A DNA stretch of 64,000 bases from Bacteroidetes bacterium GWE2_42_24. GTDB lineage: Bacteria > Bacteroidota > Bacteroidia > Bacteroidales > TTA-H9. Position numbers and translations under genes: made by a program. Below are positions 26,415 through 34,250 of the stretch, one piece after another. The notes beneath the pieces are model-generated. The model searched no databases, had not been told where the DNA came from, and saw only the letters and a program-made list of their open reading frames with translations. Each line of letters opens with the position of its first letter. Positions within the stretch are counted from its first letter, which is position 1. Location: assembly GCA_001768515.1 (NCBI GenBank), contig MEOA01000015.1:6226-70225 (forward strand), written 5' to 3'.

Positions 26415-29400
26415 TTAAGGAGTGACCGCTTTAATAAGTTTAAAACCGGCTGAAACAGAATTTCCTTCTTTGTCAATCAGTATGATACGAGCAGGATATA
26501 CACCATAAGGTACCAGGGCATTTGAATTGTTTTTTCCATCCCAGGTAATACTGACCATTTTTCCGGTATTTGCTTCTGGAGTCGTCGTATTTAAGTACAC
26601 CAGCCGTCCTGACAGATCATAAATCTGAAGAGTGGCTGTAAGATCATTGTTATTGTTGTTAAGGCTGAACCAGATGGTTGTTGTTTCGGTAAAGGGATTG
26701 GGCCTTACCGATATGTCAGAAAATGAAATTTCAGAAGTGCTTTCGCCAATATAAAAACTCAGAGTCAGGGATGCTGCATTGTTATTGATATCGAAAGCTC
26801 TGAGCACCAGAGTGTGAACTCCACTGCTTAAAGTAGGGAGCATAATGCTGAGGCTTCCGGAGCGAGGATTGTCGAGGGTGGGTTGAAAGTAACTGTTTAA
26901 CACGATGGTAGCGCTTGACAGGTTATCGATCACAGCAGTGATATCGTGGCCGAAACCGAGTCCGGCGAAATTTACTCCGAGATTATCGCTGATGTCGGCA
27001 ATGAGCAGGGGGGTCTGATTGACTTTATCCCCGTTTCTAAAAGAGCGGTCATCAAGCCAGGCCTGAATAACGGGTGGTTGGTCGTCGGCCAACCCCTGAG
27101 GGTCTGAGCCTTCAAAGAAGAGTCTTTTTTCATGTCCTGTAGCGTCATCGGTTGAGTCGGTGGCATAGAGGCTTAGCAACGGGTAACCACCAGCCATTTG
27201 CATATCTCGGGGAGCTATAAAGGTGAACCTAAACTTCCCATTTTCAACGGTAGCCCTTCCTTGAATCAATTGCTGATTCGTAACAGGGAAAGTAAAGGGT
27301 TTCGATTTCGGGTCGTTGACGAGAGTCGTAGTATTCATTGGTTTATCGTAGAGCCTGTATGCGAGTACACCGTTGAAATTACCAAGCAGACTGGCTGATG
27401 GTGAAATTACTTCTCCTTCAACCGTGATTTCTGACAGGGCTTTCAGTGTACTTTGGAAATTGTTGATGGGTGTCTCGTTTACTGTCGTAATGCGGATACG
27501 GTTGACAGGGAAGTCTGGCCTTAGTGCAGGATCGCCCAGCAAGGTGATGTTACGCATCCTTGAATCGTTCTTATTGGCATTTTTCGATAGCCTGATAAGG
27601 TCACCAAAGGTATAGTCACGAGGTTTGCTGTTGGCAAACCATATCTGATAAAGAGATTCGTTCAGGTAGAAGTTGATGGTTGAATAGGCTAGTCGTGTGG
27701 TAGTAATCAGACCTATTCCACCGCCATTGGGATTGAGGAGTACTCTTTCACCGGCTGAGAGAAGACCGGGATCATCGAAGCGGCTGAATTCACATGTTGC
27801 CGTGATAAAGAGCGGCAGCCCGTTGTAGTTATCCCATGCTTCAATATCGGGTATCTCAAGAACTTTTTCTTCGCTCCATCCAAGCTCACCACCATGTCCG
27901 GTATAGTTTACCACCTGGCAACCATCATTCACGTATTGGTTAAGAGCAGACTGGGCTTCCGGATAGCGGTTGCCTGAGGGTGTTGAGGTCTGGACATATG
28001 CATCGAGGTAAACCTTGTTTATCACCTGTCCGGGTAACAGGGTGTCGATGGCCAATGCCAACTTGTGGGACTGGTCGATATGGGCGTTGGAATCTTCATC
28101 GTCGGCAATGAAAGTAAAACGGTTGCGCCAATCACCAAAGGATTTGGGCTGTTGAGTGAGGTAAAACTCGATTTTGTCGACCACTTCCTTGCTTTGTTTA
28201 ATCGTTGATACAGGAAACCTTCCGATTCCTAAGTCGAGAGTCCCATTGGCTGAATCGCCCTCTCCCTCATCGAGTAATCCGAAGAAATCGTCAGTCACAT
28301 AGCTTGTTCCCAGATTGAAAGATTCGAGCGACTCGTATGCGGGAATCAGATTCTGATTATTTGGAATGCGATTGAGCGGGTCGTAGCTTCCGTCACCAAA
28401 AAGCAGGAGGTATTTTGGTGCATTACCCTGCGAAAGTCCACGATCGTACAGCATACGCATAAAGCCTCTGATTGCCATCGGGTCTGCGATTCCTCCGCCA
28501 AATTCGTTGATTACCTGTTCAATGGGGATTACCCGACATGAAAGGTTGCTGTAATTATGATGCAAACCAGCCAGACGTTCTGCTTCGCTTATTAGGGAAT
28601 CGGGTGTAATAATGATATAATCGACAGGTTGAAGAGCATGGAGATTTTGATTGGGTACAGGTTGGTTAAATTCCGGGGTGTATTCATCGCCATCCTCAAA
28701 AACAACAAAACGGTGCAATGCAGTCGTGTTCATTCTGATACGGCCGGTATTCAGTTCGTTGTCGAAAACATAATTACAATTGTATGTGGAATCGGATTGG
28801 GTGACATCCCATATATGTTGACTGCCTGTCAGGTTGCTGAAAACCACTTCCGGAATTTTTAACGATTCACGTTCGGGGCTGTAAAATACAGGCATTTGAT
28901 TGTTAGTGTATTGCAATTTCCGGGTTACCTGTAGTGAAAAGTAATCGAGGTAGCCTACAGGACTTGATCCTGCCATATCATACCAGATAGATACATTGAT
29001 GTTGTCAGAGGAAGGAAAAAAACCTTGAGCCTTCGTGGCTGGTACACCCGTAAAATAGAAAAGATCATTGCCATTCAGTCCTTTGATAACGGTTTTAATA
29101 AGCTGAGATCCGTTGACACCTGCATAGAAATTGCTGGCCGTATTGGACCATCCGGCTACTGAAATTTCGATAGTGGCTGCAGACGTTAACACAGTATTCG
29201 GGAAATTCAGATTGAACTGGCGGGGTTCAGTGGACCGGAAGAGTTGCTTGCTTACCCACGTACGTCCTGTTCTGCTGACTGAAAGACTGTCGGGTTTAAA
29301 ATAGTAGAAGTCGGGGAAGGTTGATACGATGTGGGTAGGGTCGTTGGTTACATTGTTTTTGATTGTAACCCTTGAGGGGGCTTCATCATCAATATTAAGG

Positions 29401-33400: not shown

Positions 33401-34250
33401 CGGCATAGGGATTTTGAGTTCTGATAAAACGTTGTGCAGAGGAGTTGTATATCCATTTCTCATGCCCGGGATTGTAGAAAAGCACATAATCGCCGGCATC
33501 AAATTTCCCGTCCCCGCCATCAGAAATAAATAAATGGTTTTCAGGGAGGTCGTAATCGCGGGTCTGGCTATTGGCTTCGGGCAGAAGTGCTCCACCCGAT
33601 CCAAAAATTCGAATTAGCGTAGGATTAATGGATGACAGATCGATACCTGCGGACTGTAGGTCAGCACCAGTCACTTTGACCATGCCCCGGCCGGTAACAT
33701 TAAATTTCAGCCAGCTTCCTGATGAAAGAACTGAATTCTCAGGCCAATCGGCTACTTCTTCAGTCATTTTGAAATTTTTATCCGTTTCCCAGTCAATGGA
33801 AATTTTAAAGCGGGTAAGTAGTTCGGGATAGCCAGTCAACGTATTTATTCTGACAGGAATCAGAAGTATCTCGGCAAACCATTCACCCTTTTGAAGAAAA
33901 GTTGACGAGGTGATCTCATAATTATCGCTAATCCATTCATAACCATTTATGTTTGAATGGGGAAATTCTTCAGACAATGCATTTTCCAGTGTTACCACAG
34001 GTCGGAGTCCTTGTTCGGGAAGAGGTGTAATAAAACGGTAGAGTGGAAGATTGTGCCCTTCCTGATCGACATCACCTTCAATGAATCGAAGTGAAAACAA
34101 TGAACTATTTAAAACGGAGTCGTAACGAAATTGATGTTCCCAACGTAAAATAACCTGCTTTGTCATCTTTTCGGTTGAGGAAAAAGAAAAGAATGTGTTC
34201 ATGAGCAGGATAGCTGTCAGATAAATTCGAAAACGTTTTAAAGTGGTCAT
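30414..34250 (-). CDS. Second PorU-like C25 peptidase/sortase paralog
   Basis: Start placed at the ATG at 34250 (MTTLKRFRIYLTAILLMNTFFSFS, signal-like). This gives 1278 aa, the same length as the neighbouring PorU. It keeps NYTGHGGELGW and FITATCEFSRYDDP and has a CTD-like end ..NYPNPFTNITNFVF... The 99 upstream codons in the track ORF look non-coding. Confidence 0.75.
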   Translation of the reverse strand: MTTLKRFRIYLTAILLMNTFFSFSSTEKMTKQVILRWEHQFRYDSVLNSSLFSLRFIEGDVDQEGHNLPLYRFITPLPEQGLRPVVTLENALSEEFPHSNINGYEWISDNYEITSSTFLQKGEWFAEILLIPVRINTLTGYPELLTRFKISIDWETDKNFKMTEEVADWPENSVLSSGSWLKFNVTGRGMVKVTGADLQSAGIDLSSINPTLIRIFGSGGALLPEANSQTRDYDLPENHLFISDGGDGKFDAGDYVLFYNPGHEKWIYNSSAQRFIRTQNPYAVSSTFFVTWDGETGKRITQKTLPTTTPGANLNWFVDYFAHEANLSNLIGTGRKWFGENFNLYTDKEFSLTFVNPVIPSQAILSSSVAGRAYSSNRFYVTLDNTRILSQPIGIITSTSLEASYALERFDTCNFNLTTAQPTLKYEYSRASTSSEGWLDYFEINYRRLLSFTAPWVAFSNPTGVGTGAVTRYNISNASSALQIWDVTQPQTPQKIPLQLSGQTASFNDHADTLRTYVAFDGSGFLSGTGWQRVGNQNLHAISEVDYIIISYPGFIDQANQLADFHRNRGLTVKVTTPELIYNEFSSGNQDLSAIRDFLRMVYQRGGRGHQLRWVLMLGDASYDYLNTLEVNHNFVPTWQSTISLSPANSYATDDFFGLFDVTEGQDCNGYIDVGIGRLLAKSSEEAQSMINKIIGYQEMTNENMRDWRNVICFVADDQDSDTHVKQSDNMARMIDTTYRQMNIDKIYFDAYQQVSAPGGQRYPEVSDAINRRVENGALIINYTGHGGELGWAHERVLQISDINSWHNLDNLPFFITATCEFSRYDDPLRESAGEKVFTNPNGGGIGLFTTSRLTYSGSNESLNRAFLSVLLARTSDGYLTLGEAVLKSKQLNGSNLNGRKFILIGDPAMKLAFPEYYAEATSIEYGLTGLPADTISALDEIIIKGKITDASGTTMTNFNGEVFPTVFDKAQNITTLSNDPDSPSYTFSLQKNVLYKGQTNIANGEFEFSFIVPRDIEFRYGSGRLSLYARSAETDATGWDHDFLIGGYSKNFIQDNQPPVISLFINDQNFIDGGITDENPVLLAYLNDESGINVSGAGIGHDITAILDGQTDSPYILNDFYRADVNTYKSGMISYPLYNLSPGLHTLKVTAWDVQNNPATAIISFVVNPSGTLVIENISNYPNPFTNITNFVFEHNSQNSDLNVEIEIVNLVGQRMTVIRRTIPAGGFHTPPIEWDGRGGNGQAIAGGFYIYRIRATASDGTSTEGTGRLIKSGKVF

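Follow-up and report, generated by a model that had tools for sequence, protein, structure and literature searches.

Why would a bacterium keep two genes for PorU, the sortase of the T9SS (type IX secretion system), side by side and next to one porV? The question is raised by a stretch of 64,000 nucleotides, hereafter the window, from Bacteroidetes bacterium GWE2_42_24 (assembly GCA_001768515.1, contig MEOA01000015.1, positions 6,226 to 70,225 of the forward strand), which carries such a pair on its minus strand. In Porphyromonas gingivalis, PorU is itself a T9SS substrate; its C-terminal domain (CTD) stays on and binds PorV. The enzyme cuts off type A CTDs and hands the cargo over to anionic lipopolysaccharide (A-LPS) from PorZ, or the cargo is released; according to a review of 2023, it is unknown how PorU chooses between release and attachment (PMC10202324). 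On the basis of comparative analysis of the pair and its relatives, we suggest with moderate confidence that the two genes encode two active, usually co-expressed sortase isoforms, which derive from one old tandem duplication and would split the processing of type A cargo between them.

The upstream copy (referred to as UP or PorUb; 30414..34250, minus strand) and the downstream copy (DOWN or PorUa; 26415..30251, minus strand), which adjoins porV, each encode 1278 aa and represent the slower- and the faster-evolving paralog, respectively. At its maximum the PorUb open reading frame (ORF) spans 30414-34547(-) and comprises 1377 aa from a GTG. The Met at 34250, which gives 1278 aa, is the right start rather than the GTG, since a signal-peptide-like N-terminus (MTTLKRFRIYLTAILLMNTFFSFSS) begins there, since the L001 orthologue (86% identical; L numbers denote the compared loci) uses the same Met with only approximately 8 open codons upstream, and since the GTG would be 24 nt away from where the divergent porP begins. 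The signal-peptide-like N-termini, judged by eye only, show in PorUa (MKKIYQFHLLVILTVLATGSFAAE) as well as in PorUb (MTTLKRFRIYLTAILLMNTFFSFSS) a basic stretch and, after it, a hydrophobic one. The ORFs and the Met 34250 start bear out two adjacent minus-strand genes of 1278 aa each, as proposed in an earlier reading of the window made from its letters alone (the sequence-only reading). Equal lengths are not general, as other pairs measure 1278/1132, 1286/1127, 1268/1278 and 1281/1156 aa, and the identical length is a coincidence of the window's lineage. Within PorUb the putative signal peptide and the N-terminal "long-form" domain cover approximately 33741-34250, the C25 catalytic domain approximately 31515-32618 and the type A-like CTD approximately 30417-30707; the corresponding regions of PorUa are approximately 29742-30251 (N-terminal domain), 27516-28619 (C25) and 26418-26708 (CTD), all on the minus strand.

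BLASTP alignment of PorUa with PorUb gave 417/1163 identities (36%; 724 bits, 9 gaps), close to the one third that had been estimated by eye. Both proteins matched the NCBIfam PorU model NF033707 (1127.8 bits for PorUa and 1267.4 bits for PorUb, cut-off 420), Pfam Peptidase_C25 PF01364 (344 and 353.9 bits) and the P. gingivalis PorU structure PDB 6za2 (E 2e-122 and 3e-132), which agrees with their earlier description as PorU-like C25 proteins carrying conserved His and Cys motifs. Specifically, the motifs NYTGHGGELGW and FITATCEFSR(F/Y)DDP were found in PorUa and PorUb alike, GHGG and TATC of the window PorUs are in register with 6za2, and the C-termini of both align with the 6za2 C-terminus.

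The catalytic residues have the same numbering in the two copies, H786 and C820. In the 6za2 alignment Cys820 corresponds to C690 of P. gingivalis PorU, the catalytic Cys that has been mutated experimentally (PMC5121618), and Arg853, approximately 32 residues past the catalytic Cys in both copies, is the counterpart of P. gingivalis Arg722, which was noted as sortase-like by Gorasia et al. (PMC4560394). The codons, each checked on the minus strand, are 31893..31895 (His786), 31791..31793 (Cys820) and 31692..31694 (Arg853) for PorUb, and 27894..27896, 27792..27794 and 27693..27695 for PorUa. His786 and Cys820 were invariant in two PorU alignments (148 and 145 sequences), and all three residues were invariant in the 37 UP, 39 DOWN, 41 single-copy and 28 unclassified sequences (145/145). 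With H786/C820 present in both copies and dN/dS (nonsynonymous over synonymous divergence) far below 1, the expectation that the second copy keeps the catalytic dyad and is not a pseudogene held.

The TIGR04183 type A sorting domain model gave marginal scores just above its cut-off of 23 (25.3 and 23.5 bits for the two PorUs), which supports the CTD-like domain noted earlier at both C-termini; the Pfam CTD model PF18962 gave 23.9 bits (under 27) in one copy and was not reported in the other. The N-terminal domain (approximately 170 aa) is homologous in both window copies, with 60 and 67 bits for a hidden Markov model (HMM) built from other lineages; the "long form" N-terminal domain model NF052318 gave 31.2 bits, under its cut-off of 40, and for PorUa only. 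Both proteins agree with PorU in profile score, in the C25 domain with its His/Cys dyad, in the sortase-like Arg, in the marginal type A CTD and in linkage to porV, and the two window genes are complete, non-pseudogene PorU paralogs with an intact catalytic set and a type A-like CTD. A pair of PorU with PorU2 was ruled out by the scores for the NCBIfam PorU2 model NF052324 (157.1 and 157.6 bits, far under the cut-off of 450), and the pair consists of two canonical-family PorUs. The window porV (25081..26283, minus strand), which encodes the outer-membrane shuttle and anchor of 400 aa, is likewise canonical, with 504 bits for NF033710 (cut-off 250) vs 28 bits for PorV2, and 226 bits for PF19572.

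The layout of the locus was compared by mapping the five window proteins onto loci around PorU relatives from GTDB genomes. Single-copy loci, in metagenome-assembled genomes (MAGs) labelled Flavobacteriales, Chitinophaga, Weeksellaceae and others, show the order gldJ<-porP followed by the divergent porU->porV, and in Flavobacterium johnsoniae GldJ, PorU and PorV have the consecutive locus tags Fjoh_1557, 1556 and 1555 (PMC9127263). In the window a porP/sprF-family gene (34571..35575, plus strand; TIGR03519 252 bits, PF11751 226 bits) is divergent from the upstream porU and is followed by gldJ (35589..37325, plus strand; TIGR03524 485.1 bits, cut-off 458.2). Matches to NF033710, TIGR03519 and TIGR03524 confirm the neighbours, porV on one side and a PorP/SprF-GldJ pair on the other, that had been named from the letters.

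A search of 5.8 billion protein clusters gave only three close orthologues of PorUa (identities of 100, 77 and 61%), and the remaining matches share at most 41% with it. The context of the more distant matches was a tandem pair in 7/7 look-ups (L022, L023/L024, L025, L026, L027, L028 and L109). Altogether 39 further tandem pairs were found, at 9/28 genome or look-up loci and 30/80 metagenome loci, shares that are not an estimate of prevalence as the loci were fetched with queries built from these paralogs; the gene order in all 39 is J-, P-, then U+, U+, V+, that is gldJ and porP divergent from two porU genes and porV.

As a proxy for the species tree we used a neighbour-joining (NJ) tree of concatenated GldJ and PorV (68 loci, 200 bootstraps). 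All two-copy loci in it (32/32) belong to a single 34-tip clade with 68% bootstrap support, and 0/34 loci outside that clade are two-copy (Fisher p = 4e-17 for clade vs two-copy state); the only single-copy tips inside the clade, L046 and L048, are near-identical. Because all two-copy loci are in one clade and none outside, the most parsimonious history would be one duplication at the base of the clade followed by rare loss. The clade is made up of mostly uncultured, anaerobic Bacteroidales with Lentimicrobium species as the nearest named relatives; the window threonyl-tRNA synthetase, too, has its closest named counterparts in Lentimicrobium species (78-80% identity). Horizontal transfer of one porU copy was considered and rejected, the composition being without anomaly (GC 0.44-0.49 throughout the region).

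Lone copies of either type occur, the UP type being the one kept where a copy was lost cleanly. The single-copy loci L046, L048 and L078, whose PorUs lie inside or beside the UP group of the PorU tree described below, carry the UP type directly by porV. At L006, L009:4331-9109 and L020:9818-14701 a short DOWN-type PorU stands alone by porV, and the 4-10 kb upstream of it contain neither another porU nor porP or gldJ; these lone PorUs group with L002_DOWN and its relatives (100% bootstrap), and in this lineage the pair is split or the UP copy has been lost. At L109:4081-7895, on the closed 4.86-Mb metagenomic contig ctg13497c, the UP porU is split into genes of 189 and 1053 aa, and the DOWN copy (P0088, 1285 aa) is intact; the split reflects either a long-read frameshift error or a decaying copy.

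The two paralogs have diverged asymmetrically. Relative to L001, dN is 0.076 for UP and 0.137 for DOWN (approximately 1.8-fold faster), and 0.02-0.03 for PorV, PorP and GldJ. PorUa and PorUb are clearly both under purifying selection, with dN/dS far below 1; the values vs L001, approximately 0.035 for UP and 0.054 for DOWN, are rough as dS is saturated (pS approximately 0.7), and those vs L022 are undefined for the same reason. Single-copy PorUs always score higher against the UP than against the DOWN copy, and the N-terminal domain is absent from 21/39 DOWN vs 5/37 UP sequences. Moreover, column entropy is higher for DOWN than for UP in nearly every protein window, with the largest gaps at residues 751-800, which flank the catalytic His, and at 1050-1250, which cover the C-terminal domains and the CTD.

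Near-fixed differences between UP and DOWN are confined to residues 855 and 901. Residue 855, two residues past the catalytic Arg, is Val in 32/41 single-copy, Thr in 32/37 UP and Ala in 35/39 DOWN sequences, and in the window it is encoded at 31686..31688 (Thr, PorUb) and 27687..27689 (Ala, PorUa; codon checked), both on the minus strand; residue 901 is Lys in 28/37 UP and Asn elsewhere. Both paralogs therefore carry derived states. Recent gene conversion between PorUa and PorUb was rejected, as no conversion tracts were found between the window copies, which at the DNA level share at best a 75-nt stretch of 76% identity.

With respect to expression, the UP-DOWN gap has a median of 35 nt among the 39 pairs, and in the window it is 162 nt (30252..30413, minus strand) and holds no terminator-like hairpin on that strand. 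The sole minus-strand terminator-like site from porUb to the porV stop is a hairpin with a T-run right after porV (25036..25059; consensus match only). The short gaps and the position of this hairpin suggest that porU-porU-porV would be co-transcribed, with the transcript ending past porV. In addition, a Bacteroidota -7-like motif (TATCTTTG; 30277-30284, minus strand) lies in the porU-porU gap, 26 nt before the PorUa ATG, and because TAnnTTTG sits in its upstream gap the DOWN copy may also have its own internal promoter. TAnnTTTG occurs in 20/39 UP-DOWN gaps elsewhere, often 14-33 nt before the DOWN ATG; it is present in both short gaps of interest in the window, without window-wide enrichment (40 observed vs 44.8 expected). 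The similar -7-like motif before porV is at 26353-26360(-). A sigma-70 promoter scan of the window, which uses a consensus that differs from that of Bacteroidota, was uninformative (15 sites vs 18.7 expected).

How might such a pair work? We propose that the duplication arose inside the gldJ<-porP, porU->porV cluster of the clade ancestor and that nearly all sampled descendants keep both genes. PorUa and PorUb would both be exported by the T9SS via their own CTDs, both would dock on PorV, and both would be active cysteine transpeptidases whose substrate is type A CTD cargo; the two would usually be co-transcribed with porV, and the window DOWN copy may in addition have its own promoter. The job would be divided either by cargo subset or by outcome, i.e. 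release vs attachment, or use of another acceptor. That the pair has been kept for so long while diverging asymmetrically would imply non-redundant roles, most likely a partition of type A cargo or of outcome. More tentatively, a conserved UP and a fast-evolving DOWN PorU on PorV might form a two-sortase attachment system in which the copies set different fates of type A cargo (anchoring vs release, or the glycolipid acceptor), and in which residue 855 (Val to Thr, Val to Ala) plays a part; we regard this version as possible, though doubtful.

Alternatively, the paralogs might act as one unit, a heterodimer in which one copy mainly regulates or scaffolds the other while keeping its catalytic residues. 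P. gingivalis PorU has been reported to be held latent by dimerisation, one monomer obstructing its partner's active site with a beta-hairpin (PMC10202324), and the tight packing of the genes (the median gap given above), the long retention of the pair and its asymmetric evolutionary rates would all fit an arrangement of this kind. However, His, Cys and Arg are invariant in 39/39 DOWN and 37/37 UP copies, which would be needless for a purely regulatory subunit, the UP type stands alone by porV after clean loss of its partner (L046, L048, L078), and the DOWN type does so in L006, L009 and L020. With the catalytic residues invariant and either type able to stand alone, an obligate regulator-only role is disfavoured, and we consider the heterodimer unlikely.

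The reading of two active isoforms from one old duplication has several results against it, some of which concern the origin of the pair. The division of labour between the copies is something we purely infer, the loci were fetched with queries built from the paralogs themselves, and the dN/dS ratios are rough. The PorU NJ tree of 145 sequences, the kind of phylogeny that the sequence-only reading had envisaged, is broadly in line with the species-proxy tree: 38/39 DOWN copies form a group free of UP and single-copy PorUs, and a second group is made up of 32/37 UP copies. Its deep nodes, however, have almost no bootstrap support, and five UP copies, those of the L002 group and of L028, lie apart from the main UP group. 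The L028 pair (L028:1712-11471, a locus with two porP) is 52% identical and its copies group together in the tree, likely as a result of gene conversion or secondary duplication. When each lineage was left out in turn from the HMMs, UP copies preferred the UP profile by 200-300 bits, partly via the N-terminal domain, and DOWN copies showed no preference for the DOWN profile, so that this test could not prove DOWN orthology across lineages. A scan for derived residues shared by DOWN copies gave 4 weak columns, none of them in the window's lineage. As the DOWN copies have no clear derived signature, a single origin rests mainly on the NJ species-proxy tree with its 68% support.

The unsupported deep PorU nodes, the lack of derived residues uniting the window's DOWN lineage with others, the absent preference for the DOWN profile and the L028 pair could also be expected if several independent tandem duplications had taken place and the apparent single event were due to fast-evolving copies attracting each other in a distance tree. 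We find this improbable: the 32/32 two-copy loci share one GldJ+PorV clade with none outside it, within well-supported subclades the branching of the UP copies is matched by that of the DOWN copies (for example, with 100% support in both halves for the L023, L025 and L026 lineages), and site 855 is Thr in 32/37 UP and Ala in 35/39 DOWN copies across lineages.

It had also been suggested from the letters that the second sortase serves another cargo class, namely that it is dedicated to type B proteins and works with PorP/SprF-like partners. The window does encode both a type A CTD cargo (41176-45456, minus strand; TIGR04183 28.1 bits, cut-off 23) and a type B CTD cargo (51116-52459, plus strand; PF13585 68.6 bits, and TIGR04131 28.7 bits, under its cut-off of 35), as had been claimed, and a porP-family gene lies by the UP copy. 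The handling of type B proteins is described as less well explored, and type B substrates depend on cognate PorP/SprF shuttles (PMC12618676). The neighbourhood of porP and gldJ is, however, also found beside single-copy porU; any tandem duplication inside the cluster yields one porU by porV and the other divergent from porP-gldJ, and the gene context of the pair therefore says nothing functional on PorP or type B cargo. Two-copy loci have mostly one porP (two at L028), no more than single-copy loci, so that a further PorU brings no further PorP with it, and in nine single-copy, Chitinophaga-like loci (L007, L008, L011-L014, L017, L018 and L021) two tandem porP/sprF genes lie between gldJ and porU, the duplicated gene there being porP and not porU.

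Published data on type B proteins point in the same direction. In PG1035, a type B protein of P. gingivalis, the CTD undergoes neither cleavage nor modification with A-LPS, the PorE-PorP-PG1035 complex assembles without PorU or PorV, and according to the same paper type B secretion in F. johnsoniae needs neither PorU nor PorV (PMC9143113). Moreover, both window copies have type A-like CTDs and share one porV, and the window type B gene is followed by mnmH, without an adjacent cognate porP. A second, selected and intact PorU thus stood from the earlier proposal; its type B link fell with the shared gene context and the PG1035 data, and we hold a sortase dedicated to type B cargo to be very improbable. 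The mnmH gene itself (52575-53594, plus strand; 348 bits) encodes a tRNA 2-selenouridine synthase and implies selenium use. Still less credible, and largely refuted by the present results, is a redundant or decaying DOWN copy without a separate role, for which its faster evolution, more variable CTD, frequent lack of the N-terminal domain and loss in a few lineages might speak, but which is at odds with an intact, full-length reading frame at dN/dS of approximately 0.05, with invariant His/Cys/Arg in 39/39 DOWN copies and with retention in 32/34 loci of the clade.

The surroundings of the cluster vary between the lineages. A parA-parB-DUF5683-ABC-F ATPase block by porV is common to the window (20242-24542, plus strand) and L022:8947-13294. 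In other two-copy lineages porV is followed by ispF and rpsF-rpsR-rplI, and gldJ is flanked by a murC-type ligase gene and anmK; in the window the latter two are 9 kb further off (46301-48726), separated from gldJ by dapD, a heptosyltransferase gene, a Sua5-family gene and the type A cargo gene. Neither porQ nor porZ, whose products belong with PorU and PorV to the attachment complex, was found within the 64-kb window.

Elsewhere in the window, an apparent hydroxyproline-utilisation cluster (58153-63996, minus strand) comprises genes for an S37/S28 peptidase (58153-59445), a proline-racemase-family protein (59482-60450), the trans-4-hydroxy-L-proline dehydratase HypD (60834-63200; NF043068 1211.7 bits, cut-off 1100) and a radical-SAM activase (63235-63996), which runs to the window end; the cluster fits an anaerobic, peptide-degrading lifestyle. 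At 2141-3880(+), a gene for a 186-aa protein that matches exosortase EpsH marginally (26.5 bits, cut-off 25.7) is followed by a UDP-GlcNAc 2-epimerase gene, and this region may represent an element for protein sorting or exopolysaccharide that is unrelated to the pair. No Pfam match at E <= 1e-5 was obtained for five ORFs of 179-556 aa (352-2022, 12255-13807 and 14643-16423, plus strand).

Compared with known systems, the window PorUs resemble P. gingivalis PorU in their near end-to-end alignment, the C25 domain, the His, Cys (C690/C820) and Arg (R722/R853) residues, the CTD and a gene by porV, and they differ from it (6za2) by the extra N-terminal domain of approximately 170 aa outside the aligned region. 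One PorU each has been described for P. gingivalis and F. johnsoniae, whereas the window has a tandem pair (36% identical) and one adjacent porV; in the F. johnsoniae cluster (Fjoh_1557, 1556, 1555) a single porU is likewise flanked by gldJ and porV. PorU has been listed among the proteins not essential for T9SS function in F. johnsoniae (PMC9127263). The NCBIfam families PorU2 (NF052324) and PorV2 (NF052325) provide a curated precedent for a second PorU/PorV-like set in some Bacteroidota, from which the present pair differs in that its PorUs score far under the PorU2 cut-off and the local PorV is canonical. Gram-positive bacteria combine a housekeeping sortase A with specialised class B, C or D sortases that share the same catalytic set and divide cargo classes or attachment outcomes. 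The likeness to these several transpeptidase paralogs is one of analogy only, since the fold and family (C60) are unrelated and the envelope and the sorting signals are other ones.

Our literature search, which covered subscription papers incompletely so that absence is no proof, found no description of PorU paralogs or of tandem porU, and duplicates are not mentioned in a 2020 phylogenetic survey of T9SS components (PMC7323717). Annotation hides the paralogy, as pipelines call both copies "PorU" and older records call DOWN a "hypothetical protein". For example, a cluster-mate of PorUa (at least 90% identical, 1278 aa) was deposited under the latter name in several GenBank MAG records, e.g. 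OFY14478.1 (Bacteroidetes bacterium GWE2_42_24), and newer records name such proteins PorU without telling the paralogs apart. Residue 855 together with gene order may offer a simple way of doing so. The arrangement, a conserved T9SS attachment module with two predicted sortases, is both real and old, and it seems not to have been described before.

Work on the T9SS has been built on species described with one PorU. A clade that keeps two intact PorUs by one porV represents a natural experiment on the choice between release and attachment, and if the two copies do set different fates of type A cargo, nature would already have pulled apart two functions which the one PorU of the model organisms unites.

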